The position numbers and the translations under genes are program-made. From the IMG/VR virus record IMGVR_UViG_3300036985_003303, positions 53,347-117,346 of that record: a stretch of DNA of 64,000 nt; one strand, given 5' to 3'. The notes beneath the pieces are model-generated. The model was not told the origin of the DNA, did not search any database, and saw only the letters and a list, made by a program, of their open reading frames with translations. Source of the DNA: a virus. Below, piece after piece: positions 11,341 to 53,500 of this stretch; position 1 is the stretch's first letter; every line of letters starts with the position of its first letter.

Positions 11341-11346
11341 ATTTAA

Positions 11347-11377: not shown

Positions 11378-11378
11378 T

Positions 11379-11870
11379 ATGGAGGTTGACTTAAATAAAC
11401 CAAGAGTAACTGAGAAAAAAGGCAAAGTTATTAACTATAAAGAAGTTAAAGACTTTAATAAGTTGCACCCAAAGTACAATTTAGATAAGTCTGCAATCAT
11501 AAAGATCATGAGAGCATTTAATTCAAACATGGCGGAAGAAACAATGATTAATATTTATGGAGTAATACTTCCTGAAAATATTGGTGCTGTGTTTATTAAT
11601 AATGCTGGAAAAGCAAAAGGTAAGTCTATTGACTATGCTAATTCAAAACTAGCAGGAAAAACCGTTTATCATAAAAATTGGGATACAGATAACAACATGA
11701 TGCGAATTGTGTATATTAACCACACCAAAAGAACTATGGTGAAGAATGCTAACATGTTTTCATTTAATCCTCTTCAGCAGTTTAGAAGAAAAGCTAGTGC
11801 ATATTTTAGAATGCATTGGGCCAGATGTGTTTCTGTAAACTATAATTCTACTGTTGATATTAACATATAG
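11379..11870 (+). CDS. IHF/HU-like DNA-binding protein of the crAss-like tail module, 163 aa
   Basis: Basic protein with helical N-half and GVILPENIGAVFI (HU/IHF G-x-V-x-L-x-x-x-G-x-F-like). It sits immediately before ring and muzzle genes, as in crAss-like phages. Start moved to ATG 11379 because the longer ORF crosses a terminator. Confidence 0.65.
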   Translation: MEVDLNKPRVTEKKGKVINYKEVKDFNKLHPKYNLDKSAIIKIMRAFNSNMAEETMINIYGVILPENIGAVFINNAGKAKGKSIDYANSKLAGKTVYHKNWDTDNNMMRIVYINHTKRTMVKNANMFSFNPLQQFRRKASAYFRMHWARCVSVNYNSTVDINI

Positions 11871-11872
11871 CC

Positions 11873-12544: not shown

Positions 12545-12545
12545 G

Positions 12546-34600: not shown

Positions 34601-37600
34601 AATGGACAACCTGGAAGAGATGGATGGGTTACAACATCAGTAAAGATTTCTGAAAACGCTACACAAGAAGAAATAGATAATGCTACTAGGGCAGCAAGAA
34701 CAAAGATGAATGCAATTTTACCAAATATTACTGATGGTAAATTTGTATTGTCTGCTGTTGACACATCTCTCAATGTTTCTGTTAAAGCTAGACCAAGTGC
34801 GGCAGCCCAAGATGATTCAACCGCAGCCCTGAAAGAATTTGAAAAAGCTAGAGATGTTTTGTCATTCTCTAAGAAAAAGTTTCCAGGGAAAAACATGCCG
34901 TTGTATCAGTACTTGCGCATGTTGAATAATGTTAAACCGGTTGTTGGACAATTTGCTTACTACATAAATAGAAATAATACATCAGATCCTGTTGTAGAAA
35001 AGCTTGGGACTATTACAAAGTTTAACGACAACTCATTTACATTCACTGATGCTAGTGGTAAGTCAGTTACTAGAGCATTAGATTTAAAAACCATTGAGTA
35101 TGCTAATCCATACTTTTTATTTAGTGAGAATGAAGTAGAAAATGAAGTGTCTTATGATGCAGCTGAAAAACTCATTAATGACAGGAAAGAAAAGAATTTA
35201 CCGCAAGTTTCTACACCTGATAATACAGCTGTAGATAAAGAAATTGCAGATGTTCTTAAACAAAGAAATGCTCTTCAAGATCAACTTAATGAAGAAGATG
35301 ATGACATTGTTGAAGAAGGTGAAGAAACTGTTCAGCAGGGCACTAAGAAAGTTAAATTCTTAATGTACAAATCTACTGGTACTGGTTCAACTGCAGCTTC
35401 TGCTGGTGAGTGGGTTCCGCTATTAGCTATAGGAAAAGCTATAACTGATGAAGGTGAAGAAATAGAATGGTTTGTTAAAGCTTACCATAAGGGACAAGAT
35501 CCTAAATTTAATAAATATGGCAGTTCTGTGTTTGCTGATATAGACAGAGAACTAAAAATAATGGAGCCAAATTTATTTACTGAACCTGAAAACTGGGTTA
35601 CTGAACAAATTTCAAGAGATATTGAAGAAGAAACTGTGGTGGAAGAAGAAATCCCAGTAGAAGAACAAGAACCAGAAAATGAAATTCAAGCTGAAGCATC
35701 TTACCAATCTAGAACTGAAATTTTAGATGATCTTGATTCAGTAAAAAATGAAATTGCAAAATTAGAAGTTGAGTATGATAAAGTCACTGAAGAAATAAAC
35801 ACAGGTAAATTATCATTGATTCAAAAAAGAAAGGCAAAAAACAAACAGAATCTTTTAGCTATTGACATCAATGACTTGTATCAACAACTAAATAATTTAC
35901 AAGCCGGTTTATCTGAAATTGGTGAAGAGGCTGAAATTTTAAATAATGATGCACAGTATGTTCCAGCTTTTGATTACAATGGAAATGAAATAATTTCTAG
36001 TGAAACTCCTTGGATGGATATTCCTCAAAGTTTAAGAAATGAATTAGCTGATTTGTTTGGTAAGGCGTTGAATAAATTAAATGATGCAGATGTTATTGCG
36101 ATTAAGGCTGAAATGAAGTCTAATCCTAAATACATTTCTGTTATTTCTGCATTTTCTAAATTGAGATTAGACCAACAAGATTCTGAGTTAGGAGCTAAAG
36201 AACTAAAATTAAACAATCAAAAAGTTGAAGATGCTAAGTTGAAATTAAAACAACAACAGCAACAAAATAGAATAGCTGCTCGTCAGGCTAAAAAACAAAA
36301 AAGAGCAGCTAGACCAAAGGTTAGTGATGAAGATATTTTAAAAAGTGTTTTAAAGGACTATGATTATTCAATCCTTTCTCCTAAAGAAATTAGTCAACTT
36401 GTAGCCAAGCTGAAAGATAAAAGCAATGCCTTAATTGATTATACTGTAAATGATATTTTAGCTTATATCAATAATAAAAAATTAGTACAAGCCCAGAAAG
36501 AACAAACGCTTGCAGATATAGAGCAACAGAAAGAGGAAGCTCGTGTCAACAAACAAATCAAAGGTAATCTAGACTTCTTGATGTTGCCTGTTATACCATT
36601 TAAAACCAACTATGGCAAGGAAATAAAAATGCGTATTCCTCAGAATGGAATGGTCAAGTTTATTACTACATATCATCCTGAGATATTTACTCTACCTAGA
36701 CAAGAATTTTTAGATGCAGTTAATGACATTCTAAAAAGTAGAATTACAGACATTAAGTTCTTTAACACAAAAGATTTTGGGTTTGAAAGAGGATCTAAGA
36801 CTACACATTTAAAACTATATTCTTTATTTAGAAAGTTAGAAAAAGAAAAAAAGTTGTATCCTGAAGTGGTTAATAAAATCAACTTGGCTTTATACAATGC
36901 TGACAGCAAATTTAGAATTAGAGCTACGCGTTCTGGTAAAAATGCTACCATGTCTTCTATGTATGTTATTCAAAAAGTAAAATCTACAAAAAGAATAACT
37001 CCTCCTGGAGCGTATGGTGCAAGTAAAAAGATTTTAGGTTCTTATGAAGTAAACACAGGAAATCCTTCTGAGTTTGATTTAGAGATAGCTATTGCTATGT
37101 ATTTCTTACAGGGTGGAAAAATTAAACTTAGTGCTTTAGAACAAGTATTTGGAGAAAATACGTCTGAAGTAAAAGACTGGAAAGGTGTAGCAAGTGAAAC
37201 TGCTTCTAATTCAAAAGCAAGTTTCGATGGTGCGTCTATAGCAATTTTAGAATTACAAAATTTTGATGTAACTACAACTGGAATAGATAGTACTATGGCT
37301 GCTAATGCACTTGAAGCTTTTTTAATGAAGTATTCAAGTTTATCTAATGCTGTTAGAAATTTAGTAGATCAAGTACAAAGCGATCAATCTAAAGCTGAAG
37401 ATCAAAATAGAGGAATCAGTAATGAAGAAGCAGATGAAAGATTGTTTTTGCAAGAGCTAGAAGAAAAAGGAATGTCTATTGATGAAGCAGCTGAATATCT
37501 TGCTCACTTAAAGTTTTTACAAACCGAAGAAGGTCAAGAAGCATTAGAATCTGAAGCAAAATTATTAGATGAGTATTACAACTCTCAAGAATTTGAATTA

Positions 37601-38356
37601 TTAAATGATGAGTTTGCAGGTGATGAAAATGATTTATCAGATGCAGGATCCGAGTTAAAAGATGTTGGTTCAGAAGAAGAAGAGGTTGAAGATGTTGAAG
37701 AAGAAACTGACACAGAATCTATATTTGAAAACAAGGATACAGAAAAACCTGAAAAAACAGAAGTTGATTTATACTTAGATGAATTAGATTCTTTGGCTTC
37801 TATTCCAACGCGAGGTGCTTTATCAAATGCAATTGAATACGCTTGGGATAATTTAAATGGAGCTAAAAAAACCGACATTGCTTTTGCAGCTGCTGTGTTT
37901 AGATTTGCAACTAGTGGTAGATTTTTAGACCAGGAAGATGAAAATGGAGTAACTATTAAATCTAAAACAGTAGCAAGAAATGAAGCAATAATTAGAGCTA
38001 AAATATCTGAAGGTCACTACAGAGAAAAGTCTGTTCAAATTAATGGTAAAGTTTATAGAATTGCAGGGTATCAAAAAAGAATGGTAGTGCTGCAAGATGT
38101 AAATAACTTGTCTGAGTATTTGAATTTTGAAATGGATGCATTTTTAAATGGCATTGAAAAAGAAGTGCCTGTAAACAGTGATGTTGCAAATTTAAACATT
38201 GATTCTATTGTGAAAGTCAAAGAATTTGACTATATTAAAAGTGCTTATACTGATATTTTAAATAACTTTACTACCTATATGGGAGAGGCTAATTCATTAT
38301 CAGAAGATAAACTCATCTCCAGTTTGAAAGAAGAAACAACAAAATGTAAAACATAA
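28643..38356 (+). CDS. Giant virion-ejected polyvalent protein A (3237 aa) with metallopeptidase domain
   Basis: ATG 28643; Gly/Ala hydrophobic segments in the N-terminal 500 aa; IAGFYDEKTNTAYIVADAVKENTLYHEIFLH (His codon 32798) with downstream FEHELVG; coiled-coil and acidic linkers; single Cys at position -3. Confidence 0.8.
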   Translation: MADITKTFTDADFGDAPKPKVDADDLKFKQLADKHLEKALPKLVSVYNMGKAQDFSAKQANLAKFATYGSETYGKLGFDPYKAGGVPGVKSGMDALYDDNTSWTADTGRAWDGMWKLAGIGFQDTIGLGAFADSGNYLDFEDTMSKFSSSRGGNAGFWSNTMLSSGYTMGIIGGIAAEELALAGITALSGGTAAPGTIAAGGTLFAQGVARIKQAGNMLKFVNKLQDVKSATGFMGKAGASLKGFGKALNPLENTMDFLFTADKLKDLNGLKQTALGVGSIVRDARKITMSHGESKLEANMASKEFREKMYDDYYKNNPDMAGKPVSKEMESKIEGEAQKVHDNVYTANFGLIYATNAITFDNMLKSMRGTNRFFANAGDLFKVVKKEGGKVAVDVLKKNAWNYGRKKLGEITWQGSIKSIVSGSMEGFQELGQDVISESVKSYRERNVKGLQVRGGMMSFLENDVSKAIDKQNSGQGLSTFLSGALMGVFASPVGFASQQTQNYLFNGGVNKSYKYFADKEGYTKEKLDVESKRKEKAKVLTEFFNNSKNFVDAWSKGIYSQSELQEQILTAGESGDQKTMKNKQHESFVNGIHTLLESGMENQFADHLEYMGKNLNAQQLNEIFSRTDITEETKGQYQKKLQHQAENIKKLRGVYNEIQNTINNPIDLKSLDTSDPEYLNKYFKYRSVENLKKELLFSHSKIADRANRQKEIRTQLNNDNPLSTLEVNALLDDGDLNQQIQLLKTEVETNSKLSAYGDGAVQNQAQARAKLKAYENYQAKLTAYKTEQKNEKGSISESDTFDELFDAYNSILEVSGKNKLIDVAAQRAFNKQQFNKVFDYISLGEEGRFNQELIDTILNPVGSSAFIEGQEEMLKRLEENKEDHILSALYEFDKKTVSDDMLNDLYNNDLFFDLQELDDLLNKGLMPQEIFDIATNKQATPEQYEAAQKIINSYIKKLKGKTITNDKTQLNKQGRKLKSDKRTIAGILRQYKVKLNEPIKLSSPEGQRLLAKLMTAENKYLTKLDREILTKLGEQDVTIKFVSDNTLPVQLTDDGILELDIRFAGSDYTNSVMSFENLIVTGLTQHAITEKLKTKDDLYLAARNAMEQAKKAFASANPRANVDELSVFEDVNIFMTEAMNDLQFQKFLATVEDTVQPTSKSLWSTLSTGIGVIVQEDIDKKLANRVINIAAKALDDSIIDNISESNEESKEVKQQRATASKEQVEELNKLATELGQRWNVNVKVLASQEEADKILNSLQDPFYQKFSTIINDLLYDPLYMGFNLQKGVNEVSLKELLMSIYEKSENLSDLIANLKELAVYQTNGKVGEMVDWLVSNADNIGDGIEMVKNIFFQAEEETIAGFYDEKTNTAYIVADAVKENTLYHEIFLHPFLINLEKTNPEFYKQLVAEAKGSQEIIDYVEKNYGTEDKIGSRQFEHELVGRAYDLSVSNKLSEKKEPGLFKKMGQFIKRMLAKVAEFLTISKSDIGRFNPRKTTITDLAEYSVNSNAKVNLGKIIEAGKQAQSTEATLKPRTRKKTVKSVRTVIEEQTVNKGGDLIVLDNASDRPDIFGDFLHPEIVFGNNLAIAEWTEKLVELGQELDDARITNWAYGNIRAQVGGRLIIDVTAEIPVFVKKALQNKKANPRVIELQKEIADLDAKIQQLSNQKKTTASSPSIISADTEAKRKQILDKWNSKSAWYQKEGRLSEWYAERDKELAALGQPVSNQAEIDKIKNQIKELENQKGEVIPEPNFKGEALYFRQPSNDGSFKDMHSGKQPEASLTMVKIVVNENNPSEGSIEYVGDNTMSKLISNSPQTHLGLFAEFADTKEKLNLTTPVIKNIKKGIVRKTDTGWEIVQQPVIVFGEVTPEIKTKYFNTKIDNSAEITKLKKELAALDGQTSVSAPAAAKDQTFEVHVGGIERGYTEVSESKDKGVGDIRGLIGQQSTAQGILITKGATNSATENDRFVVLYSKVDANGNRLAEGTSNGQPGRDGWVTTSVKISENATQEEIDNATRAARTKMNAILPNITDGKFVLSAVDTSLNVSVKARPSAAAQDDSTAALKEFEKARDVLSFSKKKFPGKNMPLYQYLRMLNNVKPVVGQFAYYINRNNTSDPVVEKLGTITKFNDNSFTFTDASGKSVTRALDLKTIEYANPYFLFSENEVENEVSYDAAEKLINDRKEKNLPQVSTPDNTAVDKEIADVLKQRNALQDQLNEEDDDIVEEGEETVQQGTKKVKFLMYKSTGTGSTAASAGEWVPLLAIGKAITDEGEEIEWFVKAYHKGQDPKFNKYGSSVFADIDRELKIMEPNLFTEPENWVTEQISRDIEEETVVEEEIPVEEQEPENEIQAEASYQSRTEILDDLDSVKNEIAKLEVEYDKVTEEINTGKLSLIQKRKAKNKQNLLAIDINDLYQQLNNLQAGLSEIGEEAEILNNDAQYVPAFDYNGNEIISSETPWMDIPQSLRNELADLFGKALNKLNDADVIAIKAEMKSNPKYISVISAFSKLRLDQQDSELGAKELKLNNQKVEDAKLKLKQQQQQNRIAARQAKKQKRAARPKVSDEDILKSVLKDYDYSILSPKEISQLVAKLKDKSNALIDYTVNDILAYINNKKLVQAQKEQTLADIEQQKEEARVNKQIKGNLDFLMLPVIPFKTNYGKEIKMRIPQNGMVKFITTYHPEIFTLPRQEFLDAVNDILKSRITDIKFFNTKDFGFERGSKTTHLKLYSLFRKLEKEKKLYPEVVNKINLALYNADSKFRIRATRSGKNATMSSMYVIQKVKSTKRITPPGAYGASKKILGSYEVNTGNPSEFDLEIAIAMYFLQGGKIKLSALEQVFGENTSEVKDWKGVASETASNSKASFDGASIAILELQNFDVTTTGIDSTMAANALEAFLMKYSSLSNAVRNLVDQVQSDQSKAEDQNRGISNEEADERLFLQELEEKGMSIDEAAEYLAHLKFLQTEEGQEALESEAKLLDEYYNSQEFELLNDEFAGDENDLSDAGSELKDVGSEEEEVEDVEEETDTESIFENKDTEKPEKTEVDLYLDELDSLASIPTRGALSNAIEYAWDNLNGAKKTDIAFAAAVFRFATSGRFLDQEDENGVTIKSKTVARNEAIIRAKISEGHYREKSVQINGKVYRIAGYQKRMVVLQDVNNLSEYLNFEMDAFLNGIEKEVPVNSDVANLNIDSIVKVKEFDYIKSAYTDILNNFTTYMGEANSLSEDKLISSLKEETTKCKT
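33785..34331 (+). repeat. 19-bp exact direct repeat AAAGAACTAGCTGCTTTAG (KELAAL) at 33785-33803 and 34313-34331
   Basis: Read directly; both copies are in frame and bracket a roughly 170-aa insert. Confidence 0.9.
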
Positions 38357-38361
38357 CTAGC

Positions 38362-41300
38362 ATGAATATTTGTATTACTCCGGAGTCAATTAAATTATTT
38401 GGTTCATTCATAAATAGAAAATTAGGCGAGAGGTTAACAAATGACAAATCAGGTGAAGCATTATTGAATGAATTGTTCAATGATGCTTTAACTGTTTTTA
38501 GTGGAAATGGATTAACCGCAGATAGAAATAAAGAATTGGTGCTTCAACACATGAGCATTATTCCTCAGATTGTATTAAAACATACCGCTGACAATCCAAA
38601 ATTAACAAATGCAAAGTCACTACCTCTTTTTAGAGATCTTGCTTTACAAGTGATGAATGCGGCTGAAGACGAAAACACAAATAAATTCCAAAATGTCATT
38701 GATAGATTTGGTGGGTTTATTGGAAACAATAGTGATGTTGTTGTTACAGAAGGAGATCCGCTGGAAAGATTTGAAGCAGTGTCCATGGAGTTGGCTAAGA
38801 CTAGTAATCAAGAAGCCATTTATAATCCAGTTTTAAATAGTTATGCTGAGAATATTTTAGATCCAAGAAAAGAATTGGAGTTTAAGGTTGCTCGCAATAT
38901 TCTTAACAAGCAAAACGCGGCAGCACTAAAATTTAAAATTACTACACTTGGTGCAATTCAAAGTGAACAAAACTTTGATAATACTACAGGAACCACAGAT
39001 CCAAACTTGCCGGTATTAATTTTAATTGATTCCAACAACAATGTAGCAACTTTTGATTCTGATGGTAATTTAAACAAGGATGGTAAGTTTGTTGCATTTA
39101 CTGTAAAAACAAACAGAGAAGCTTTGCAGTATCAAGAAAGAATGATTGCAAAAAGTTTGTTGCAATCAGGAACTGTTGATTCAGAAATAAAAGCTGCAGC
39201 ATTAGCAAAAGCGCAAGTTGATAAATTTGTTAAATCTTTTGAAGCATCTTTAACTAAAGCTAAAGCAGGGACTACTGTTTTTATGAACATTGATTTATCA
39301 AGAAGTTCAATTGGCCTAGTTGCTTTAAATAGAAATATTCAAACACCGCTTACAGAAGTTTCAAATATTAGCACATCTGCTGCAGATGGCCTTACTACAT
39401 TAAAACAATCACCTCAAACAAAACAGTTTTATCCTGTTTTAGCTGTACAAAATACTAATACAGAAGAAAGAGTTTTTGGAAAACATTTATCATCTTTAGC
39501 AGAAGATGAACTAGAATTGTTGCACCATATTTTAACTACTCCTGAACTTAAAATTAAAGACAGAGTTGTTTCAGATAAAAATTCCAACGGTTTAAGAAAA
39601 GATCTTATACATTTTTTCATTGATAGTTCTAATTTATTAAAAGATAAAACATGGCTTAATAATCCATTTGAATATTTCTATGAAGGTACAGGTAAAGATA
39701 AAGTAATGATGCTGCGGTTTTTAAATCAAAAACCAATTCCTGCATCTTCTTTGACTTTAGAAAAATTAAAAGAATGGACTAATGCCAAATATGGAAAACC
39801 TATATACCGTAAGTTAAATGCTGAAGAACCTGCTCCAAAAAAATCATTAGAAGAAGCTTATTTAGGTGAATACTATACAGATGCTGATGGTAATTTATTT
39901 GAAGCAGCTGGATTAAGACGATCATTTGCAAATAGACTAAATGCGTCTATGGACGATTTAATTTACATAGTTCCTTCTAAATTAGAAGATGGAGTTATTA
40001 TTTTAGGTGAGCAAATTTCAATTGGTTCACATGTAATAAAACATGGTTATACAACTATAGTACCTACGGCTGAGAATAAATTAATTGGATTAGGTTCATA
40101 TCTTGCTTTTAAAGATGGGTATGAAGCTATGATAGATAATGAAGAATCTGATTTTAATTCTAGTGATTTTGACAACATTAAATGGCGTTCAGTTCCACAG
40201 AGAAATAATTTAATACAATCTACAAAGGAACAAGATAAAAGTGTGTCTGAGTGGTGGGAAAAAAGTCCATTAAGGAATGTAGTCAATGTTAATGTCTTAA
40301 ACAAAGTCAGTGAGTTTGGACCAAACTATTTAGCAAATTTTATTGGCAACTCTATTAATTTGTATCTTGGATCTTCACCTACAGATTTGTACCATGAAGC
40401 ATTCCATGCTTATTTTGATGGAATATTATCACCTGCAGAAAGAAAAGAAATATATGATACACTTAGAAAAACTCCAGGATACTTTACAGTAACTGTAGAA
40501 GGTGTGTCTAAAGTTGTGCCTTACGATGATGCAACAAATTTAGAACTTGAAGAGTTTTTAGCTGAAAAGTTTAGAGAGTTTGCTATGGCTGGTGGTAAAA
40601 AAACTACATTCAGCAACAACAAAGTAATGGCGTTTTTCCAAAAACTGCTTTCTCTTTTAAAGAATGTATTTGGAAACATGAGTTTTGCTGAAGCTAAAGC
40701 TTTTAATAAAACTCAAGGCATTACTGATGCAATGTTTACTAGATTGTTTAAAGGTGATTTTACTGCAGATATGTTCAACATAGAAAATGCAGAAACTAAA
40801 TGGATGTCATCTGAAATAAAAACTACAACAGGAGATACATTTTCATTAGAAGAAATGCATGATGTAATGTCTAGTATGAAATCAGTAATGTCTGATTTTG
40901 TTACACAAGGTTTGAATGTTTCTCAAAATGCGGTTGATAGAAAAAATGCTACAACGTTATTGGCAAAAATGACACAGTATCCTGAGTCATCTCAGGAATA
41001 TATTGAATTGGCTACTCAGTTAGAAAACATTTCTGAAACATCAATTAGAAGTGGAGCAGGTGTATTTACTTTGGTTTCTAATCCAGAGATGTTGAATCTT
41101 ATGAGCAAATATATTTTAGCTCGTTTTAAACAAAAACTTGCTGAAACAAATGTTAAGCTTGATGCTATTGCGGGTATAAAAGATAAATCTGCAAGAGAAT
41201 TAAGTGAAAGCACTAAATTACAATTCCAAAAAGACTTACTTGAAAAAGCAATCAAGCCTGATAATTTTGGAAAACTAACAGACCTCAATGTTATTGTCAA

Positions 41301-44300
41301 AGAAAAACAAAATGATGGACAACAAGTTGAAAGAACACTGCTCCCATTGTTCTTAAAGTCCTACAGTAATTTAGTTCTAGGTAAAGAAGTATATCAGGAT
41401 GAATATGAGGCTAAGGCTTTAGAAGAAGATATTTATGTTCCAATGTGGGATAGAACTGGTAACGATCAGTTGTTTGATGACACAATTGAAAAAGGAACTA
41501 AAGCTCTTTTAGATTCTATATTTGCTTATTCTGAACAAGGAAAAGGTGTGGTGCAATTGAATGCATTAGGTTTTAAAGAAGTTCTTCCTGTTAAAAATGC
41601 TATTGCAAAAGTGGCTAAGCTCTTGCGTAACAAGCCGGATGCTATGGACATGGCAACTGTATTAAAAGAAGCTGCAAAGAATGACAAAGAAATAGATCAA
41701 GTCTTTAGAAGACTAGGTGATATATCTGAGCTAGAGTTTGCAGATACAATGACTTCAATGGAACATCGTCAATGGTCTGATTTCTGGCAGTCATTCAATA
41801 AAGCTGATGTTTTATTGAGAGAATTTATTTTAGAAAGAGAAGACATTACAAACATTGATGATGAAAGAACTGTTAAGTTAACGTCTAAGTCTGGAAAATC
41901 TCAATCTCAAAGTATTCAAATAGAAAGACAATGGGCCGCTAATTTTAAAACTACAGCACTAATAGGGGAATATTCATCAACAAACAAAGAAGGTAATCCT
42001 GTATTTGACATTGAATCACTGTTAGATGATTTAGCAAATAACGAGGACCTTTATTATGCTTTAATTGAGGGAGGCGGTAAAACATTATTAAAATCTCAAT
42101 ATGATCCAATTAGGTCTAAGAGTAGCCGATATTCAAGAACTCCTTATGTAAAAGCTATTGCTGATCCTTATTTGTTATTTGCAGCTCTTGGTATTGATTT
42201 AGTAGATGACTCTGATGTTAGACAAGTTTTATTTGAAGGAGATTCAACTTTAGGAACAAGCCCTGCAATCTCAACTTACATTGTTGAGGCGTTAAAAAAT
42301 AGAATGAATAAAGTTGTTTTTGATGAAGAAAAAGTTCCATCTTTAGATCCAAATGCAAAATTTATAACAAGTCTTTCAGATGTGTTCAAACCATTTATGT
42401 ATTTTGATGAAACTGGTAAATTACAAACACAACCAAGTCTTACTGGTTACTTAACACAACTTCGTGAGTTGCATTATGTTTACTCAAATGACTACACAAA
42501 CTTTTCAAGTTATAATTCCAAGGGTGATCTGCAAAGTGAGAAATCATTTAATTCAAGTTTGTTAAGTTTAACAGCAGCTTTGAATAACGCTGATCACATC
42601 AATGATATAATCAACACAAAAGGACTAGAGTATTTAAACCCATATACTAATCCTCAAGCTGCTGCATCTAGATGGTTGATTGATATGTTTCAATTAGATC
42701 CCGCTATTCATTCTAAAACAAAAAGAGGTAATAGAGATTACTCAATTAAAATTAGCACTGAAAATTTATCTGGATCAAAACTTATCTCTAAAGAAGAAAA
42801 ATGGGTAGAAGACATCAATTCTGAAACTGGAGATGTTACAGATAAACGCGTTACTTTTGAGTATGACAATGGTGTTGCTTCAATGGAAACTGATGAAAAA
42901 TCAAAATTTATTTCTGATTTTCATTTAACTCTTGAGGGCAAACAAGAAATCATGCGTACAGAAGCTAAGTCTACGTCAATGACTGTTTATACACCTGCCG
43001 TTAAAAGTGATGGGAGAAGAAAGAATACTAACCTCCTTATCAATATAAATGAATCCGAAAAGATTTTTGCAGAAGGATACAAAGGAGAAATCCTTTTTAC
43101 AGAATTTAAAAATCATTTAGCTGCAGAACTTATAAGAATACAGCAAATAAAAAGACTACAATCTATGATCTTGTCGGGTGAAATTAAACCTGAAGATCTT
43201 GCTATAGATGTTGCTCAGTTAAATCGCGGAGGTGATTGGTTTGTATTTGATAAAATATTTGAGGACAGCAATGATCTCAATTTGAAAAAAGACTTATTGG
43301 CATTTGACATCAACACTGTAATTTCCGAATCAGAAAATGCTCAAGGAAAAGGAAGTTTTTCAATTGATGCTTTATCTCCAGAATTAAAAACTAGGGTTGA
43401 GGATGCATTGATTAAATACTTTAATGATGAAACCACAAAGTTAAATAATGAGTTAGGTGGCAAGTTAGTTATTGGTGATAATTTATTTGAATCATACGCC
43501 AAAGAAATAGAGTCAAATCCTGAATTATCTGAAGCTGAAAACAAAGATGCAGTAAAAGAAAAAATGATTAAAGTGTTTTTGGTGAACAACTTTATTCAAA
43601 ACTTAAACTACAATGCTTTGTTTTTAGGAGATGCAACAGTACATGATGTAGAAGGAGAAGCTTTTCACAAACGTATTGCAGGATTAATCTCTACTGGTAA
43701 AATCTTTAGACATGATGGAGTTTGGATGAAGTACATTAATTCCACACAATACAATGCTTACGGATTTGCCAAAAAACATAACAAAGAAAAACCATCTATT
43801 GCTTTAGATTATGAGTACACTGGTTTTTTAAAAACAGCTATTATAAAAGAAGCTAAATCTAATTCTATTTACATAGATCATTATCAAAAACTTTTAGGTG
43901 TAGACACATCTGATTACAATAACATGGAAGAAGCTGATGGCCAGGGATGGTTATCATTTGATGCATACCGAATACTAAATGATTCAATTGGTGAGTGGTC
44001 AGATGCTCAAGAAAAAATGTATCAAAAAATGCTTGCGGGAACTAAGTTGACACAAGATGACATGCTTGCTACATTTCCTGTTAGAAAGTTCCAGTACTAT
44101 GGTAATGTTTCAAATCCAAAATCTGAAAAAATATTAAAAGATTTAGGAATTACTTTAGGTCATTCTGCATTTCATAAGTACTCATTGATGCCATTAATCC
44201 CTGCATTAATAGAAGGGACTCCTTTGCAAATCATGCATGAAAAAATGATGGAGCAAGGAATTGATTATGTGACAATGGAATCTGGATCTAAACTATCTTC

Positions 44301-47300
44301 TCTTTCAAAAGTAAAAGTGGTTGAAACAGAAAAAGGTAAAAAGATTGAAGCTGATTTTGATAATTTTTATGATGCAAACACAAGAGAATTTAATGTAGAT
44401 ATTCAGTTTACTCCAAATGTAATTCATGTCAAGTATTTAAAAAGCCAAATCTTTTTAGATGAAGGATACAAAGAACATATTACTTTACCAACGCAGGTAA
44501 GAAAAATTGCATTGATCGGTATTTTAGATGGAGGTGTCCCTACTGATTTTAAATACACAGGTAAGAAAAACAAGAAAGATGTTTGGGAGGCACTGTCTAA
44601 AAAGGATAAGCTAAAACAATCTAAAAAATGGCAATGGTATCAAGACTATACCAGCACATTAGATGAAATGCAAAATGTTTTAAGAGACAGATTGTTGGAA
44701 GACATTGCTCTTAAAGAAGATACTGTAAATGGTCAAAAGACTTATACTGGTGACTCTACAAAATTAGCAAACTACTTGAGAGAGAAGTTAAAGTCTAAAG
44801 AGGTATTGCCAGAAGAGATTAGTTATTTGATTAAACCTGATGGAACATTAATAGATGATCTGTCCCTGTCATTGATTAGCGATAAGCTAGAAGAATTGTT
44901 AGTGACTCTTGTAGATAAAACTTTAAGGAGGATTACAGTTAATGGAGAAGCTTTAGTTCAAGTTGCAGGTACAATGTTTGAAAAATTCCAAGTGACTGGC
45001 GGAATATCTGTTTCTGAAGAAATGCTTAAAAGTTCTAATCAAGCTGCTCTGTTGAAGAATGGTTCTAATGGTTTGAAGTTTTATTTCTTACAAGATGAGT
45101 TTGGAAATGAAGTTTTAGATAATGATGGCAAAGCTATTGTAAAAGGAATGGATGTTAAGATTTCACTTCAAGGTGATTTCAAAAAATTACTTTACACAGA
45201 AAATGCCAAAGGAGAAAAAATTGCCGTTTACACTGAAGATGAAAATGGTAAAAAAGTATTAGACTACAATGCATCATTACAAAGACTTAATGCTGCAATT
45301 AAAACTACATACTGGCAAAATAAATATGGAGAGTTAATTAAACTTCCTGGTGTGCGTATTCCTACGCAGGGACCAAACTCATTAGTTGCTGCTACAGTTG
45401 CAGAATTTTTACCTGAGTTTGCCGGTCCAACAATTATACTACCTACTGAAATTGTTTCTCAGTCTGGAGCTGACTTTGATATTGATAAGTTATTTATGAT
45501 GTTCATGAATATCCGAAGCTACAATGGATCTGTAGAAGCAGTAAAGTATTCACCATCAACTCGGACTTATGAAGAAATAAGAGAGAGTATTGAAAAAGAA
45601 GAGCCTAAATTAGAAAAGGCAAACACTGCATTACAAAAAAACTGGAAAGAATACACGGATTATCTTGTTGAAAAAGAAGGTTTAAATGAGTATGTTGGTG
45701 CATTTTATGGTGAGATAAGTGATCTTCAAGTAGACATTGACGCGTTGTATGCAGAAAAGAAATCTGTGTATGAAAACAAAGACTATGACTATGAGTTTCA
45801 AGAAAAACTACACGGTGAATTACAAAAACAAATTGATGCCAAAGTAGATCAAAAATTAACATTGCTAAGTTTTGCTCAAAGTGAAACAAATGCTTTCTTT
45901 GATACAGTAATTAAGAACAAAGCGGATAGAATGGCTATTGTACAAGAAAAGTATAATGAGTTCATGTCTAAAATAAACAAGAGTCAAGAGGCAGTAGATG
46001 CCATTAAGGCAAACATTGCTAACTTCCAAAGAGAACGTGATGGCAAAGGAGTTAAAGGATTAGAGAATAGGTTTTTTGATTTGTTGAATGAAAGAGTTTT
46101 AATGAATGATAACTTGAAACATTTGATTACTCCCAATACAACTAAAGATACCGAAGAACCTTCCAGAGCTGCGGGTAAATTGACTAAGAAAAACTACAAT
46201 AAAATTCAGAAAAATGGAAAAATCTCAAACACTTCCATTTTTGAGTACAGGTTTAACTTATTAAAGCATCAGGAAAATTCTGTAGGAAAAGATTCATTAG
46301 GGATTGCCGCGGTTACATCTACATTCTATGCCCTTTTTACAACATTTGGTGCAACTTTACAAGAAACAAGTAATGAAGATCAAGCTGAGTTTGTAAAAGC
46401 GTTAGAGCTTCTTCAAGACTTTGGAAAAGCAAACACACCTCAATATGCAGCAGCATTAAAAACAGTTGATACTTTTAGAAACAAAAAATTAAATTTTGTA
46501 ACTGATGCAGGTACTCCTGGATTTAATTTGAATGTTGAGAAAAATGCGATCACTTTGGGCGCAATGAAAAATGTGGATGGCTTAGAAATTTCAGATATTC
46601 TTTCTCAGTTGATTAATGGTTTTGTGGATGTTGCTAAAGATGCTTGGATTTTTGATGCTCAAGGTACTAAAGAAACTGCGCCTGTATTATTATTTATGGT
46701 GATGGCCGGTATGAATGTAACATCTGCTATTAATATGGTGAATAACCCATTAGTTTTAGAGTTCAATCAAGTACTAGAAGAATACAAAGGAGTATTTGCT
46801 GCCCTATCTGAGGATTACGAAAAAGGTCAAACTGATACAATTGGAAAAGCAGCGGAAGTATTAAGTAAAAAATATGCTAATGTTTTTAGTGATCCAACAA
46901 ATGTAACTAAAGCTAGTTCTTTAGGATCATACAATAGAATTGCAAACACTGCAAAACCTTTTACAAATGATGACATTAAAAATAGATTAGGGCAAGAACC
47001 TAACTATAGGGATATGGAAATCTTATCTCACTTTCTTCAGATAAAAGAAATGGCTCAGGCATTAACTGATTTTACAATGGTATCCAAGTTTGATACGCAA
47101 AAGGTTTCTAATATCAGTGAAGCACAAGCAAGAATTGAATCAATAGAAAAATTTAAACTAATTCCTATTGGAGAAAAGATGATTCCAAATGAATGGTTTG
47201 ACAAATTAAAAGACACGCCTGTTGGTAAATTTAATAATGATGAGTTCATTGTTGATTTGTTTTCTAAGTATTTCAAACTCAGAAACAACAAAGCTTTGAT

Positions 47301-50300
47301 TTTAAGATCTCTTGATTTACTTGATTCAAAAAGACCAAAGGGTGTAGATCAAAGAAAATTACTTGCTGATTTTAAAAATGACTTCCTTTGGTTCTTGTAT
47401 CAAAATGCAGTCTATAATGATAACAGTTATACTACAAGTCCAACAAAGTTTATCAAAGGTAATACAGAAAAAATTGAAATACCTGGAAAATCCTACACTT
47501 TAGTTGAGGATCCCTCTATTGAGTTTGGTATGGAGATTAATGAAGAAACCGGTGAAGTAAGATACAGCCCAGATGTTTATTTTAAAGAAGCAAACATGTT
47601 GGAGTTTATGCCATTCAGAAAATTCTTTAACAACACTTTACCAAAAGAATGGGTTAAGTTTAGACTTGAATACAGTAATCTTTCTAAGGTGGCTGAAACT
47701 TTAACTGTAGATGAGTTTAAAGAAAAATTCAAAGTGTTTGATCAACCAAAGAGAACATTTATGAATCAAGGTTTTGAGCAAGGAAAACTAATTATATTAG
47801 GAAGAGCTGCTTTATATAACACAGGTAACGTAGGTGCTATGTTTGATATTTCTACTGGTGCTGCATCTGTTGTTCAAAACTTAAAAGCTCTTTATCCTGA
47901 ACTAGAAAATTATGCTTTATTCAGAGATGTAAAATATGATTTTAATGAGTCTGTTAAAAAGAACAACATTTATTTCCCGCAGGTAAAAGATCCACAAATG
48001 GCTTCTATCTATAGAGAAAATATTCAAGAACTTAAAAACAGTCCACATCCTGAAGTTAAAAATTTCATCAACAAATTAAACCATCTTGCAATAATGCAGT
48101 CTGGTGTTAATCGTGCTTCAAAGTATTCTATGCTCCCAATTATTGATCAGAGTTACTTTGAACAAGCAATTACAAATCAAATTGGGCTTCCTTATATTTA
48201 TCAAGTACTAGATGAATTGCAAAAAAGTTTTGACCAAAGAGAAAACAGAAAAGAAATTGATGCACAAATTATTGATCAGTTTAAAAACTTATATCAAGGA
48301 ATGATTGCTGGCACTGGAATGCGTATGAAAGTGCGTGGTGCTAACTATCTTGTTGATAAACTAAAATTCTCAAAAGACATTGGACTTAAAAAATCAAAAG
48401 TAAGAGCAAGCAACATTACAAAAATTCCTTTAGCTAAAGCTATAACAGCAGAACAAAAAGAATTAAAACTTGAGTACTTCTATAATGATGAATCAATGAA
48501 TCCATTAGCATTTGCTGAATCAATTCAGAACATGGAATGGGTGATTAGAGATCAGAAATTTATTGCACCGGAAGGAAAAAGTCAAAAAGAATTAGATAAA
48601 GCTTTACTTGTTTTGGGTATTGACAATTCAGGTGACTTGCCAACTTTAAGATACAAAACTAAAAATGCTAAAAAAGGATTTTTATCAGTTGCTCAGTCAA
48701 ATGTTTTCAAAGAAAAATTTGCAATTAAAGATGAGGCAATGGCAAATGCTTCTAATAAAGCAATTGGAAAAGCAACTAATCCTTTTAACTCTCAGTATGA
48801 ATCATCATCTGCAGCGTATGCCGCAGCTTTAGAATCTTTTTATCCTGGAACATTAGCTAAACCTAAGTCAGCAAAAACTGAATTTGTTCCTACAGATAAA
48901 GTTTGGGTGTTTGGTAGTACTATTACTAAACGTGCATACCAAGGTAAATCGGAAGCAGAGTTTGTAACAGCTGTTCAAAAGACTTTTGATACATATCATA
49001 AGCCTCTAATAGATAAAGCTGTAGAAGCGGGTGTATCTTCATTTTTTGTAGGTACTGCAAAAGGTATAGATGACATGGCTGTAAAACATTTAGAAGATCT
49101 TGGATTTAAAAAAGTAATACGCTATTCAGAACTAGGGACATATAATGAAATGGTTTCAGCTAAAGCATTTGAAAATGTAACAGATCCAATGTATGATCCA
49201 AAGTTGGCAAACACAAAAACTATAAACTCTAGTGTGTTTAATGAACTATTAGATATACTTTATGATGATACAGAAAGAAAAACTCCTGAGTGGTTTACAA
49301 AACTTACTCAGTCTGAATTAATCAACAATGGAAAAGAGATAGTCAAAAATGAATTACGCTCAATCATTGCTGATTTAGATACCAGCTATAGAAAAAATAA
49401 TTATGTGGGCTTCCGGGTTAAATTCATCAATGAACTTAAATTTTCATCAGGTAGAATTACTGTTGGTAACACTTTGTTTGATTCATTAGTAGAAGAAACT
49501 TTAATGGAATACAGACAAGCTGTAATTGCATCTGATGCTAAATTAAATTCTGCAAAAGTTGTTGTAAAAAAACCAGCTGAAAGTAATGAACAATACAATA
49601 ATGCGCTATTAAATTATTTACTTGAAATTGAAACACCAATTTTAAAAGTTGGAGAAGAAATTGAGCTTACTTATAAAAGCAGTGACTCAGAAGGTATAGC
49701 TACTATTACAGGAATCCAAAAAATAAACAATAATTTATTCAGAATTAAACTTAGTCCAAGTAAAGGTAAAGAATATACATTTGTTGTAGATAACTTTGGT
49801 AATGGTGAAAAAGTTGATATAGAACCATATAATTTAACAGTTTTTGAAAGAGAAGTTGATGAACTTGCAATAGCAAAAAATAATCTTGATGCTTTAGAAC
49901 CAATTGAAGAGTTAGTTAAGCAAGGTTATTTATCTACTCCAATTCTTTCCCCAGTAAAAGAAAAATACAAAATATCTAAAAACATACCTATAGATTCAAG
50001 TCAAGTCCACAGTATATCTAATTCTAAAAGAGGACCAATAGAAACAAAAGAGGGTTATAAAGTAACTTTTGCTGAACATCCAAATGCTATTTTTTATTTG
50101 ACACCCAATTACTATATTATGAATGGTCAAGAAGTGCCTTCTGGTTGGAAAATAGAAAATGTTAATTCAGGCGTTCAAGCAAATAATGGAGATTCTATAA
50201 GTGAAACATTTAAAACATTTGTAAAAAAATTCAAACAGTTACAAAATGTAAGTATAAATAATGATCAGGTAGTTGAAATCATTACTGTTACAGGAATGGA

Positions 50301-50526
50301 TATTAACAAACTTACTCCTGATGAAAATGCAGAAGTAAAATACACTTACTTGACATTACCATTTAGTAAAGCAGAAAAAGAAACTATATTGACTAACTTT
50401 ACTGCAAAGTTCTTTAAAGGCAAAAGTGTCCGTGAAGCTCAAAAATATATTGAAGAAGCTCTTGAAAAAGCTGATGAGCAAGGACAGAAAGAAATTATTG
50501 AGAAATTAAAATCATGTTATAAATGA
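38362..50526 (+). CDS. Virion-associated single-chain double-psi beta-barrel RNA polymerase, crAss-like (4054 aa), with N-terminal zincin and C-terminal SLOG-like domains
   Basis: SGADFDIDKLF (Asp codons 45472, 45478, 45484; aa 2371-2375) preceded by GVRIPTQG; EADGQGW, FHKYSLMP, ESGSKL, VGKDSLGIAA and INGFVDVAKD motifs fit the phi14:2 gp66/QDE-1-like polymerase family; LYHEAFH at 40393. Confidence 0.92.
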   Translation: MNICITPESIKLFGSFINRKLGERLTNDKSGEALLNELFNDALTVFSGNGLTADRNKELVLQHMSIIPQIVLKHTADNPKLTNAKSLPLFRDLALQVMNAAEDENTNKFQNVIDRFGGFIGNNSDVVVTEGDPLERFEAVSMELAKTSNQEAIYNPVLNSYAENILDPRKELEFKVARNILNKQNAAALKFKITTLGAIQSEQNFDNTTGTTDPNLPVLILIDSNNNVATFDSDGNLNKDGKFVAFTVKTNREALQYQERMIAKSLLQSGTVDSEIKAAALAKAQVDKFVKSFEASLTKAKAGTTVFMNIDLSRSSIGLVALNRNIQTPLTEVSNISTSAADGLTTLKQSPQTKQFYPVLAVQNTNTEERVFGKHLSSLAEDELELLHHILTTPELKIKDRVVSDKNSNGLRKDLIHFFIDSSNLLKDKTWLNNPFEYFYEGTGKDKVMMLRFLNQKPIPASSLTLEKLKEWTNAKYGKPIYRKLNAEEPAPKKSLEEAYLGEYYTDADGNLFEAAGLRRSFANRLNASMDDLIYIVPSKLEDGVIILGEQISIGSHVIKHGYTTIVPTAENKLIGLGSYLAFKDGYEAMIDNEESDFNSSDFDNIKWRSVPQRNNLIQSTKEQDKSVSEWWEKSPLRNVVNVNVLNKVSEFGPNYLANFIGNSINLYLGSSPTDLYHEAFHAYFDGILSPAERKEIYDTLRKTPGYFTVTVEGVSKVVPYDDATNLELEEFLAEKFREFAMAGGKKTTFSNNKVMAFFQKLLSLLKNVFGNMSFAEAKAFNKTQGITDAMFTRLFKGDFTADMFNIENAETKWMSSEIKTTTGDTFSLEEMHDVMSSMKSVMSDFVTQGLNVSQNAVDRKNATTLLAKMTQYPESSQEYIELATQLENISETSIRSGAGVFTLVSNPEMLNLMSKYILARFKQKLAETNVKLDAIAGIKDKSARELSESTKLQFQKDLLEKAIKPDNFGKLTDLNVIVKEKQNDGQQVERTLLPLFLKSYSNLVLGKEVYQDEYEAKALEEDIYVPMWDRTGNDQLFDDTIEKGTKALLDSIFAYSEQGKGVVQLNALGFKEVLPVKNAIAKVAKLLRNKPDAMDMATVLKEAAKNDKEIDQVFRRLGDISELEFADTMTSMEHRQWSDFWQSFNKADVLLREFILEREDITNIDDERTVKLTSKSGKSQSQSIQIERQWAANFKTTALIGEYSSTNKEGNPVFDIESLLDDLANNEDLYYALIEGGGKTLLKSQYDPIRSKSSRYSRTPYVKAIADPYLLFAALGIDLVDDSDVRQVLFEGDSTLGTSPAISTYIVEALKNRMNKVVFDEEKVPSLDPNAKFITSLSDVFKPFMYFDETGKLQTQPSLTGYLTQLRELHYVYSNDYTNFSSYNSKGDLQSEKSFNSSLLSLTAALNNADHINDIINTKGLEYLNPYTNPQAAASRWLIDMFQLDPAIHSKTKRGNRDYSIKISTENLSGSKLISKEEKWVEDINSETGDVTDKRVTFEYDNGVASMETDEKSKFISDFHLTLEGKQEIMRTEAKSTSMTVYTPAVKSDGRRKNTNLLININESEKIFAEGYKGEILFTEFKNHLAAELIRIQQIKRLQSMILSGEIKPEDLAIDVAQLNRGGDWFVFDKIFEDSNDLNLKKDLLAFDINTVISESENAQGKGSFSIDALSPELKTRVEDALIKYFNDETTKLNNELGGKLVIGDNLFESYAKEIESNPELSEAENKDAVKEKMIKVFLVNNFIQNLNYNALFLGDATVHDVEGEAFHKRIAGLISTGKIFRHDGVWMKYINSTQYNAYGFAKKHNKEKPSIALDYEYTGFLKTAIIKEAKSNSIYIDHYQKLLGVDTSDYNNMEEADGQGWLSFDAYRILNDSIGEWSDAQEKMYQKMLAGTKLTQDDMLATFPVRKFQYYGNVSNPKSEKILKDLGITLGHSAFHKYSLMPLIPALIEGTPLQIMHEKMMEQGIDYVTMESGSKLSSLSKVKVVETEKGKKIEADFDNFYDANTREFNVDIQFTPNVIHVKYLKSQIFLDEGYKEHITLPTQVRKIALIGILDGGVPTDFKYTGKKNKKDVWEALSKKDKLKQSKKWQWYQDYTSTLDEMQNVLRDRLLEDIALKEDTVNGQKTYTGDSTKLANYLREKLKSKEVLPEEISYLIKPDGTLIDDLSLSLISDKLEELLVTLVDKTLRRITVNGEALVQVAGTMFEKFQVTGGISVSEEMLKSSNQAALLKNGSNGLKFYFLQDEFGNEVLDNDGKAIVKGMDVKISLQGDFKKLLYTENAKGEKIAVYTEDENGKKVLDYNASLQRLNAAIKTTYWQNKYGELIKLPGVRIPTQGPNSLVAATVAEFLPEFAGPTIILPTEIVSQSGADFDIDKLFMMFMNIRSYNGSVEAVKYSPSTRTYEEIRESIEKEEPKLEKANTALQKNWKEYTDYLVEKEGLNEYVGAFYGEISDLQVDIDALYAEKKSVYENKDYDYEFQEKLHGELQKQIDAKVDQKLTLLSFAQSETNAFFDTVIKNKADRMAIVQEKYNEFMSKINKSQEAVDAIKANIANFQRERDGKGVKGLENRFFDLLNERVLMNDNLKHLITPNTTKDTEEPSRAAGKLTKKNYNKIQKNGKISNTSIFEYRFNLLKHQENSVGKDSLGIAAVTSTFYALFTTFGATLQETSNEDQAEFVKALELLQDFGKANTPQYAAALKTVDTFRNKKLNFVTDAGTPGFNLNVEKNAITLGAMKNVDGLEISDILSQLINGFVDVAKDAWIFDAQGTKETAPVLLFMVMAGMNVTSAINMVNNPLVLEFNQVLEEYKGVFAALSEDYEKGQTDTIGKAAEVLSKKYANVFSDPTNVTKASSLGSYNRIANTAKPFTNDDIKNRLGQEPNYRDMEILSHFLQIKEMAQALTDFTMVSKFDTQKVSNISEAQARIESIEKFKLIPIGEKMIPNEWFDKLKDTPVGKFNNDEFIVDLFSKYFKLRNNKALILRSLDLLDSKRPKGVDQRKLLADFKNDFLWFLYQNAVYNDNSYTTSPTKFIKGNTEKIEIPGKSYTLVEDPSIEFGMEINEETGEVRYSPDVYFKEANMLEFMPFRKFFNNTLPKEWVKFRLEYSNLSKVAETLTVDEFKEKFKVFDQPKRTFMNQGFEQGKLIILGRAALYNTGNVGAMFDISTGAASVVQNLKALYPELENYALFRDVKYDFNESVKKNNIYFPQVKDPQMASIYRENIQELKNSPHPEVKNFINKLNHLAIMQSGVNRASKYSMLPIIDQSYFEQAITNQIGLPYIYQVLDELQKSFDQRENRKEIDAQIIDQFKNLYQGMIAGTGMRMKVRGANYLVDKLKFSKDIGLKKSKVRASNITKIPLAKAITAEQKELKLEYFYNDESMNPLAFAESIQNMEWVIRDQKFIAPEGKSQKELDKALLVLGIDNSGDLPTLRYKTKNAKKGFLSVAQSNVFKEKFAIKDEAMANASNKAIGKATNPFNSQYESSSAAYAAALESFYPGTLAKPKSAKTEFVPTDKVWVFGSTITKRAYQGKSEAEFVTAVQKTFDTYHKPLIDKAVEAGVSSFFVGTAKGIDDMAVKHLEDLGFKKVIRYSELGTYNEMVSAKAFENVTDPMYDPKLANTKTINSSVFNELLDILYDDTERKTPEWFTKLTQSELINNGKEIVKNELRSIIADLDTSYRKNNYVGFRVKFINELKFSSGRITVGNTLFDSLVEETLMEYRQAVIASDAKLNSAKVVVKKPAESNEQYNNALLNYLLEIETPILKVGEEIELTYKSSDSEGIATITGIQKINNNLFRIKLSPSKGKEYTFVVDNFGNGEKVDIEPYNLTVFEREVDELAIAKNNLDALEPIEELVKQGYLSTPILSPVKEKYKISKNIPIDSSQVHSISNSKRGPIETKEGYKVTFAEHPNAIFYLTPNYYIMNGQEVPSGWKIENVNSGVQANNGDSISETFKTFVKKFKQLQNVSINNDQVVEIITVTGMDINKLTPDENAEVKYTYLTLPFSKAEKETILTNFTAKFFKGKSVREAQKYIEEALEKADEQGQKEIIEKLKSCYK

Positions 50527-53500
50527 GTTGTGTAAATCCAAATTCACCAGAATTTAAAAAAATTCTTGAGCAGGAGCCAAATTTTTTATTGGCTGAAATC
50601 ATGTATGATAAACTCATGCAAGAACAAACTTATAAGTTGTATGATGACACGCGTGACTTTAAAGAAAGTACACCAATAGTGAAAGATCAAGAACTTATTG
50701 GACAAACTGAAGGCTGGGGTTTTAAAAATCCATCTGAAGTTGCACTTATTTCTGACAAAGAATTAAGCTTGCTAATGAATAATCCGGCTTACAATAAAAT
50801 TGAAGATCCCGTTGATCAACAAAAATTTAATGAGTTAGCAAATGCTATTGGTGAAAAAGAAGCATGGCGTGATTATTTTGAAACAAACAAAATTGTTAGA
50901 CCTGCTAATGTTGTTCTAGAAAAGTTATTTAAAAGACTTGAAGATGAAGAACAAAATTTTCAGGATACAGTAAATGAATCCATGGATTTACAACTACCAA
51001 GTATTGATGAGTTCATAAATCAGTTTGAACAAGTTGTTGAAGTAGAAAACAAAGCAAGAGCGTTGGATGTTGCTGAGAAATTGTCCAAGCAATTGAATGT
51101 TCCTTATGAAGTAATTACACAAAAAGAACTAGAAGAAAAGTTTCCTAATCAGTCTTATAGAAAAGCTTTTTATCAAGCAGGTAAAGTTTATATTGTTGCA
51201 GGTAATTTAACTGCGTCAGATGTATTCCATGAGTTTGCTCACCCGATTGTAAAATCCATGAGTAAACAAAATCCTGAGTTATTCCAAAAACTATTTGATG
51301 AACTTGCTGCTACAGAACTTGGTCAACGTATTATAGCCGATCTTAATTTAGATCCGGATTTAACCCCAGGGACGGCTGCTTATATGGAGGAAGCAATTGT
51401 TACAGCTTTAGAAGCAATCAATGAGAATGAAGAAGTAGCACCTAAGAGTTTTATTCAAAACTTATTCTTTCAAATTAAACAGTTTTTGAGAAAAGTATTT
51501 GGAAAGAAAATAGATGTGTCTAAACTTAATTCCAAAACCACACTGGCTGATTTAGTAAAAATGATCAATTATGGTGAAGAGTTTATTTTGGATACGGAGT
51601 TCTTAGACAAAGATTTGATGGTAATGTTTAAGACAGATTACGAATTGCTTAAACAACAAATCAAAGACGGTTCTGCAAAGAAAACTCAGGAGTTAATGAA
51701 CAAGTTTCATGATGTAGTTAAACTACAGCTGTCAAACTTTAAAGCAGATAATGACATTTTTAAAACTATTGAAGCAGGATTAGCTGATGAAAACAGAGAA
51801 GGTCTTTTAAATCAAGCGCAAATGATTCTTGAGGGCCTTGCAACATTTGGTTCTAGAAACCTAGTTGTTCCATTGGATGCATTAAATATTACAGGCAACA
51901 ATGCTACTGATGCAGACATTATTAGCTTTAACAACAAGATTAATTCTTTTGTTCAAGTTATTTCAACTGTAGATGAAGTTGTAGATTTGCTTAATAATAA
52001 ATTAAAAGCATTAGTTGCATCTGGTGTAAAATCTAATAATGAATTTGATCAACTGTTTGCAATCATGCAATACAATGAAGAGTGGTTAGCCAAAATAACA
52101 GATTGGAAATCTGAATATACAACTTATTCATTAGTAACTGATCCTTTAACTGGTCAACAAGTCAATCCTATTTATGATGCATTAGATGAACTACAAGAAA
52201 AACTAGATGCAGGTAAAAGAATTTCTGATAGTTTACAAATAGATTCAGTAATTGATGTTTTATATGATCACTTAAATGAATTAATGACTCCAATCAAAAA
52301 AGATTATCTTGATCAAATGGATTCATTAAAAAAAGCGGGTTCTATGACTGCGTACAATAAATTGCATGCAGAATATTACGGCTTGACTCCAACAGAAATG
52401 GTTGAGTACAACAGGTTAAAAAATAAACCTGAAGCAAGTCTTACTAGAAATGAAATGATAAAGTTGCAAGAACTTAAATTAGCAACATTTAATTCACATG
52501 TAATTTCTAAAGATGCTATTAGAGCAAAAGCAGAAGGGAGATTAGGTGATTCGCATAAATGGAATGGTTTGTTTGAATCATTTATGAATAACCAGGATCA
52601 AATTGTTGGTGGATTTTATTCATTTTTAATGAAGACTTTTAATACCATTGATGGTAATGCTAATGCAAGAAGAGCTGAATTGTTAAACAACCTTCAACCG
52701 CTTTTAAAAGCCGCAGGTTATGATACACATTTTTTAGGTGAAGGTAAACTTGGAAAAGAAGTTGGTCAAATAAACCGTTCATTTAAAACAAACAATAAAG
52801 GTCAATCAGAAGAATTTTTAGAGTGGCAGTTTTTAAGTAACTTTCATAACTATGAATATGATAGACAGCTTCTCCTTGATGCTGTTAAGTTTGCTAGACA
52901 AAAATTTAATTTGAACAAAGATGCAAAATCCAGAGATCCTTTAAAGGCAGAATTTGAAAAAGCCAAAGAAGCATTAGAAGATTTTGACACTAAGTATATG
53001 AACCGTGATTACACGGATGAGTTTTATCAAGTTGCTGCTAGATATTTTAAAACTGATTCAGGAAAACTAGCTAAGGCTGCACTGGATGATTTGTTTGATA
53101 GAATGCGTGTCATTTCTGAAAATGCAGATGTAAATCCTACAAACTTTGGAAAGGTTGATGCATTAAATGAACTCTGGAATGAATACCAATTGCTTCACAA
53201 TATTTATGATTTTAAAACAGGTGAAGAAAAAACAGGCATATCAAGAGAAATTGCTGAAATACTTACCGGCTATAGGAATGAGATTTCTGAATTTTATGAG
53301 TGGGAAGAAAAAGAAAATGCTTTTGAGTTAGCTCTTGAACTTTTGCATGATGAGTTAGTTTCTAAAGGTAAACATCCAGGAAGCGATGCATATAATGCAG
53401 TAATGGAAGAATGGATTAAGCACAACACTACGATTGCTGTAAATGAAAACTATTACATTAACAGAGCAGCATTAATTGAGGAAAGAAGTTTTTTAGTAGA

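Follow-up and report, generated by a model that had tools for sequence, protein, structure and literature searches.

Crassviruses are the most abundant phages of the human gut. Products of their cargo block have been detected in virions by mass spectrometry in phi14:2 (10.1101/2020.03.07.982082) and crAss001 (PMC10172136), and crAss cargo must partly unfold in order to exit through the tail (PMC10172136). Fused crAss RNA polymerase (RNAP) polyproteins are also on record (Yutin 2018, in the form in which the phi14:2 preprint cites it, 10.1101/2020.03.07.982082). In the Schitoviridae, the giant ejected proteins of N4 (gp50) and DEV (gp71-gp73), which include the virion RNAP, show suppression of cysteine (PMC11445570); an earlier suggestion, as worded where the DEV paper cites it, is that this suppression reflects passage through the oxidizing periplasm (PMC11445570). 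The cryo-electron microscopy structure of cyanopodophage A4 (Anabaena phage A-4L) contains a disulfide between gp27 Cys1715 and gp26 Cys5, which "further stabilises" the gp27 C-terminal helix inserted in a cleft of gp26 within a pentameric core (PMC12002296). The cysteines of the cargo proteins are mentioned neither in the phi14:2 preprint (10.1101/2020.03.07.982082) nor in the crAss001 atlas (PMC10172136), a 2026 paper on N4 calls the crassvirus ejection proteins unresolved (PMC13434306), and how a crassvirus packs and delivers about 1 MDa of protein, RNA polymerase included, is an open question (PMC13434306). Here we analyze a block of three giant proteins, A, B and C, encoded in a 64,000-nt stretch of DNA (the window; positions 53,347 to 117,346 of IMG/VR virus record IMGVR_UViG_3300036985_003303). 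The window is part of a 117-kb record, 98% complete, of a marine crAss-like phage, and the only cysteines of the three proteins lie at the ends at which they face one another.

Cysteines of the three giant proteins

Together, A, B and C contain four cysteines (Cys) in 9,299 residues (0.043%), all at facing ends; positions with a minus sign are counted from the C-terminus. The initial annotation, made from the sequence alone, had placed these residues at A -3, B 4, B -3 and C 3, had described the outer termini as free of Cys and had taken B to be the RNAP. Translation of the open reading frames (ORFs) agrees with every one of those coordinates, the N-terminus of A and the C-terminus of C are without Cys, and the identity of B is borne out by its DFDID motif and its matches to crAss RNAPs. 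The features concerned are the following.

28643..38356, + strand: protein A, 3237 amino acids (aa) from the ATG; putative first link; sole Cys at -3; crAss001 gp47 homolog
38345..38347, + strand: TGT codon of A Cys3235 (-3), ...TTKCKT; invariant column in alignment A2
38362..50526, + strand: protein B, 4054 aa, homolog of the crAss-type virion RNA polymerase; putative middle link; Cys only at 4 and -3
38371..38373, + strand: TGT codon of B Cys4, MNIC; invariant in alignment A1
40393..40407, + strand: HExxH zincin-like motif of B (H678, E679, H682); invariant columns in alignment A1
45472..45486, + strand: DFDID catalytic motif of B (D2371, D2373, D2375); invariant in alignment A1
50515..50517, + strand: TGT codon of B Cys4052 (-3), ...KSCYK; invariant in alignment A1
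50523..56549, + strand: protein C, 2008 aa; putative last link; sole Cys at 3; start overlaps the B stop (ATGA)
50529..50531, + strand: TGT codon of C Cys3, MSCV; sole invariant column in the first 500 residues of 32 homologs

At the genome-wide Cys frequency of 1.18%, about 110 cysteines would be expected in A-C, and the probability of four or fewer is ~1e-41. For four uniformly placed cysteines, the probability that all four 4-residue facing ends receive one is ~8e-13. TGY triplets in frames 0/+1/+2 number 1/57/219 in A, 2/83/261 in B and 1/49/126 in C; being plentiful out of frame, they indicate that the supply of Cys codons by mutation is not limiting and that in-frame TGY was removed by selection. 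Cys content is low (0-0.5%) throughout the ORFs at 18484-56549.

The reading frame of A ends at 38356 and can start at a TTG (28637) or an ATG (28643), the latter being favored because A homologs begin with MAD...; five nucleotides separate A from B. The DFDID region of B matches annotated crAss RNAP genes by tblastn, and blastp aligns B with the phi14:2 RNAP g066 in three collinear high-scoring segment pairs, A with crAss001 gp47 (E=4e-7) and C, weakly, with IAS gp057 (E=5e-4). These RNAP, gp47 and gp057 matches and the DFDID and HExxH motifs identify A-C as the crAss "RNAP-associated cargo block", and its upstream synteny consists of tail-fiber-like and cargo-like ORFs. Pfam and PHROGs scans of the three proteins returned nothing beyond one sub-threshold match, phmmer searches of all three against PDB sequences found no match, and a tblastn search of the phage collection with C yielded a single weak match. 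As judged from homology with phi14:2 and crAss001, A, B and C are most likely packed into the virion and injected.

A zincin-type HExxH also occurs in the N-terminal part of C (consensus HEFAHP in alignment A4), and a zincin-like domain has been reported for phi14:2 gp65. Homologs of B range in length from 3.1 to 5.0 thousand residues (kaa), and the precomputed Pfam matches of close homologs (P0002-P0073) differ among PF13532, PF08719, PF25176, PF12694, PF13671, PF18760 and PF07498; these varying matches and lengths suggest swappable accessory domains within the RNAP protein.

Conservation and pairing across Crassvirales

Of the 73 B homologs (26-97% identity), nearly all carry Cys both at positions 3-5 and among the last 1-11 residues, and internal cysteines number 0-4 per homolog. 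Exactly one Cys, at -1 to -6, is present in 34 of 36 A homologs, the other two appearing truncated, and about 45 of 51 C homologs carry a Cys at 3-5, usually as their sole Cys. Conservation in orthologs had been proposed at the outset as a check on the pattern, and it held in full: terminal cysteines and internal depletion are both kept down to 21-26% identity. Cys4 and Cys4052 of B are invariant, like the catalytic DxDxD, in alignment A1, and Cys4 is the sole invariant column in the first 600 residues of 37 homologs. Both A and B terminate in a helix-like ...[LI]xExLKxC motif. Two of the B homologs (P0045 and P0055) are fragments truncated at the 5' end.

Junctions between large co-directional ORFs were tabulated in 71 distinct viral loci, reduced from 74. 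Cys is present on both sides of 121 junctions and on neither side of 31, and there are no one-sided junctions (Fisher 5e-33 for both-or-neither pairing, uncorrected for relatedness). The 31 junctions without Cys all join A to the cargo-like protein that precedes it. Internal cysteines in these loci amount to 29 in 497,735 residues (0.006%). Both Cys codons are used at the junctions (TGT 200, TGC 42), the residues lie 1-10 positions from the C-terminus and 3-7 from the N-terminus, and intergenic distances vary from -23 to +905 nt. As a property of the sequences, the terminal-Cys pattern is a conserved and highly non-random rule across Crassvirales. In five loci (L011, L015, L016, L021 and L077), B and C, which abut elsewhere, are separated by 540-905 nt with the Cys pair kept, and these long gaps may contain a small inserted gene or element.

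The block is also divided differently among relatives. By blastp, A is split in two genes in L011 and, independently, in L039, and L079 encodes B as two pieces of 602 and 2440 aa; in L024 an additional protein of 754 aa, with Cys at both ends, lies between B and C. Every new split junction carries a Cys pair, the inner pieces having Cys at both ends, and unsplit relatives have no Cys at the places matching the splits. The resulting four- and five-protein chains contain six and eight cysteines, strictly paired. The opposite rearrangement is found in crAssphage ZA, whose RNAP is a fusion of B and C that has its real start at MSC (Cys 3), lacks a C-terminal Cys and shows no Cys pair close to the mapped fusion (about residues 2360-2600); the zincin protein preceding this RNAP ends in ...SCM. 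A further ZA protein, of 795 aa (L081 4943-7330), has its sole Cys at -2 (...QSCR) and is followed by a Cys-free 858-aa protein; this terminal Cys, from the gut crAssphage lineage, has no obvious partner.

The named phages present the same arrangement. In phi14:2, g067 has its sole Cys at -1, g066 has Cys only at 3 and -2, and g065 has its sole Cys at 3, for a total of 4 Cys in 5,398 residues. In crAss001, gp47 has its sole Cys at -3, gp50 has Cys at 5 and -9 with one internal Cys, and gp49 has its sole Cys at 5. IAS virus obeys the rule as well, with more internal Cys.

The window also contains the upstream boundary of the pattern:

26348..28633, + strand: 761-aa Cys-free protein directly upstream of A, probably cargo; no Cys on either side of its junction with A

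This Cys-free junction is where the putative chain would begin. A 605-aa cargo-like ORF lying two genes upstream of A (24525-26342) has only two Cys, spaced as CX5C at 128/134; the positions are the same in relatives down to about 24% identity (L028, L033, L059, L067 and L073), L049 has CX4C, crAss001 gp45 has C390/C398, and phi14:2 g069 has two Cys at -52 and -43. In this protein, cargo protein 1, the two Cys may close a short conserved disulfide loop or bind a metal. The 605-aa and 761-aa ORFs could in principle represent a split lacking a Cys pair, but the 761-aa protein is without a detectable match in those relatives of the 605-aa protein that are longer (806-1144 aa), and no split between the two could be shown. 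The tail-fiber-like ORFs at 278-13517 are the opposite of the Cys-free cargo block, being mostly Cys-rich (2-7%, compared with 1.18% for the genome); several of them (6186, 7033, 7895 and 10178) start with MGCxxC or MCxxC, and they recall the disulfide-stabilized tail hubs of crAss001.

Candidate links between the proteins

The junction counts and the new pairs at split sites strongly support, at the level of sequence, pairwise end-to-end links between A and B and between B and C, and the analogy with phage A4 makes a disulfide the most likely chemistry. The initial annotation had offered disulfides or shared metal sites as the links; its pairwise connections are upheld, and a metal site shared by all four Cys is disfavored. 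We consider it probable that A, B and C form a linear chain of about 1 MDa, in which Cys-free cargo is joined by pairwise end-to-end disulfides that would be reduced in the host. The C-terminal Cys of one protein would pair with the N-terminal Cys of the next, and the disulfide would close once the virion is out of the reducing cytoplasm, acting as a redox-reversible substitute for the peptide bond that occupies the same place in fused relatives; the links would be reduced in the cytoplasm of the host. Because the Cys lie so near the termini, the joint would be nearly without a side branch and the chain could pass a narrow channel, and internal Cys would have been purged because loop-forming cross-links are thereby avoided. 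Taken together, the both-or-neither rule, the Cys-free outer ends, the behavior of the block under fission and fusion and the near-terminal position of the Cys argue for a heterotypic, end-to-end linear chain and against homotypic dimers, anchoring to other parts of the virion or a shared metal site.

Several points weigh against such a chain. A disulfide has so far been observed in no crassvirus cargo protein, and the A4 precedent is an analogy, because phmmer detects no sequence similarity of A4 gp27 and gp26 to A, B or C. Assembly takes place in the reducing cytoplasm, and non-covalent docking must therefore come first; none could be shown. In anaerobic gut crassviruses the terminal Cys are retained and more internal Cys are tolerated (IAS virus and ZA), a few B homologs (P0060, P0065 and P0072) have no N-terminal Cys, and the Fisher value overstates independence because the loci are phylogenetically related. 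Structural predictions were also obtained. In the AlphaFold2 model of B 1-600 (pLDDT, the predicted local distance difference test, of 84.5), residues 1-6 are unstructured and precede a five-helix bundle. A Foldseek search of this model against the PDB gave no match at E<=0.001, and a wide VIA-align search gave only generic helical matches (Z<=6.5); these fold searches of B 1-600 provided no link to A4 gp26 or to another fold. The complex prediction for B 1-620 with A 3038-3237, run on own alignments, reached a median score of 0.31 against a mark of 0.32 and supports neither side.

Real disulfides could instead serve as staples of a static capsid-internal core, in the style of the A4 pre-ejectosome, with no thread being formed: each C-terminal helix would be locked into the next protein for co-packaging, fixed stoichiometry or stability, and the core would dissociate before or during ejection. 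The stabilization by the A4 disulfide of an inserted C-terminal helix within a pentameric core and the helix-like C-termini of A and B are consistent with this arrangement, which by itself leaves unexplained both the closeness of the Cys to the very terminus and the replacement of the pair by gene fusion; we regard it as possible but rather unlikely. The junction thiols might also bind a metal ion or engage in some other thiol chemistry, in which case the link could form in the reducing cytoplasm. That assembly is cytoplasmic and that the pattern persists in anaerobic gut phages would both suit such a link, yet no conserved His, Asp or extra Cys stands beside either Cys, the variable flanks and offsets (1-10 and 3-7) suit a tether better than a metal site, and A4 shows a disulfide, all of which makes metal or other thiol chemistry improbable. 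In its more specific form of a single shared Zn(Cys)4 or Fe-S node, this explanation is ruled out by the four- and five-protein chains with their six and eight strictly paired Cys.

Pairing of each terminal Cys with that of a second copy of the same protein (A-A, B-B or C-C), or with a different virion protein, for example the portal, draws on the use of disulfides by the crAss001 tail and portal-vertex protein. It gives no reason for the both-or-neither rule, the Cys-free outer ends or the new pairs at splits, and we deem it very improbable. Finally, the pattern might be due to chance or be a nucleotide-level by-product of the junctions (translational coupling or relics of polyprotein cleavage), in favor of which the genes abut or overlap in the window. 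This explanation is refuted, and hardly any likelihood is left to it: chance probabilities range from ~1e-12 to 1e-41, both Cys codons are used across gaps of -23 to +905 nt, and crAss001 gp47 keeps its Cys although it is encoded on the strand opposite to gp50, and therefore the pattern is not a by-product of abutting genes.

Returning to the disulfide-joined chain, it is conceivable, and we suggest it only tentatively, that Crassvirales and, independently, at least one cyanopodophage use terminal disulfides to stitch their cargo into a linear "virtual polyprotein" of fixed stoichiometry, delivered as a single thread in gene order and cut in the host cytoplasm. If this were the case, the stitch would replace a peptide bond, fission and fusion within the block would therefore be nearly neutral, and the block would as a result be variably split across Crassvirales. 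The cysteine rule predicts the order and topology of the cargo, would account for the free splitting and fusing of the block, and constitutes a hypothesis that is cheaply testable in two cultured systems, phi14:2 and crAss001. It also provides a simple sequence signature for chains of ejected proteins in uncultured phages.

Comparison with known systems

The initial annotation knew of no description of the arrangement. This stands for the terminal-Cys rule in Crassvirales, which was not found described in literature searches combining crAss or Crassvirales with cysteine or disulfide, but not for its ingredients, since N4-like Cys suppression (PMC11445570) and the A4 disulfide (PMC12002296) have been published. 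The nearest homologous systems are g067-g066-g065 of phi14:2 and gp47-gp50-gp49 of crAss001, which follow the same terminal-Cys grammar as A-B-C; with a total of 9.3 kaa, compared with 5.4-6.1 kaa in those two phages, A-C is about twice as long.

Like A-C, the ejected proteins of the Schitoviridae have a Cys content far below the proteome mean (0.043% in A-C, compared with 1.18%). In the Schitoviridae, Cys is wholly absent and the RNAP is one polypeptide, whereas A-C retains four invariant terminal Cys, one per facing end of separate polypeptides.

The A4 proteins resemble A-B-C in the placement of their cysteines. In the A-4L genome the genes for gp27 and gp26 are adjacent, gp27 has its sole Cys at -3 and gp26 its sole Cys at 5, and the order of the upstream and downstream partners is thus the same; both are capsid-internal ejection proteins, as proposed for A-C. 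In A4 a single link joins two proteins (1.1-1.7 kaa) within a pentameric core, and no RNA polymerase takes part, whereas the phage of the window would have two or more links in series, running through a 4-kaa RNAP. The A4 paper treats the bond as a structural detail and not as a rule (PMC12002296).

The fused RNAP polyprotein of ZA ("RNAP catalytic subunit fused to unknown RNAP subunit") contains the same modules in the same order. In ZA they are joined by a peptide bond with no Cys pair nearby, whereas in the phage of the window the corresponding join is a Cys pair between separate genes.

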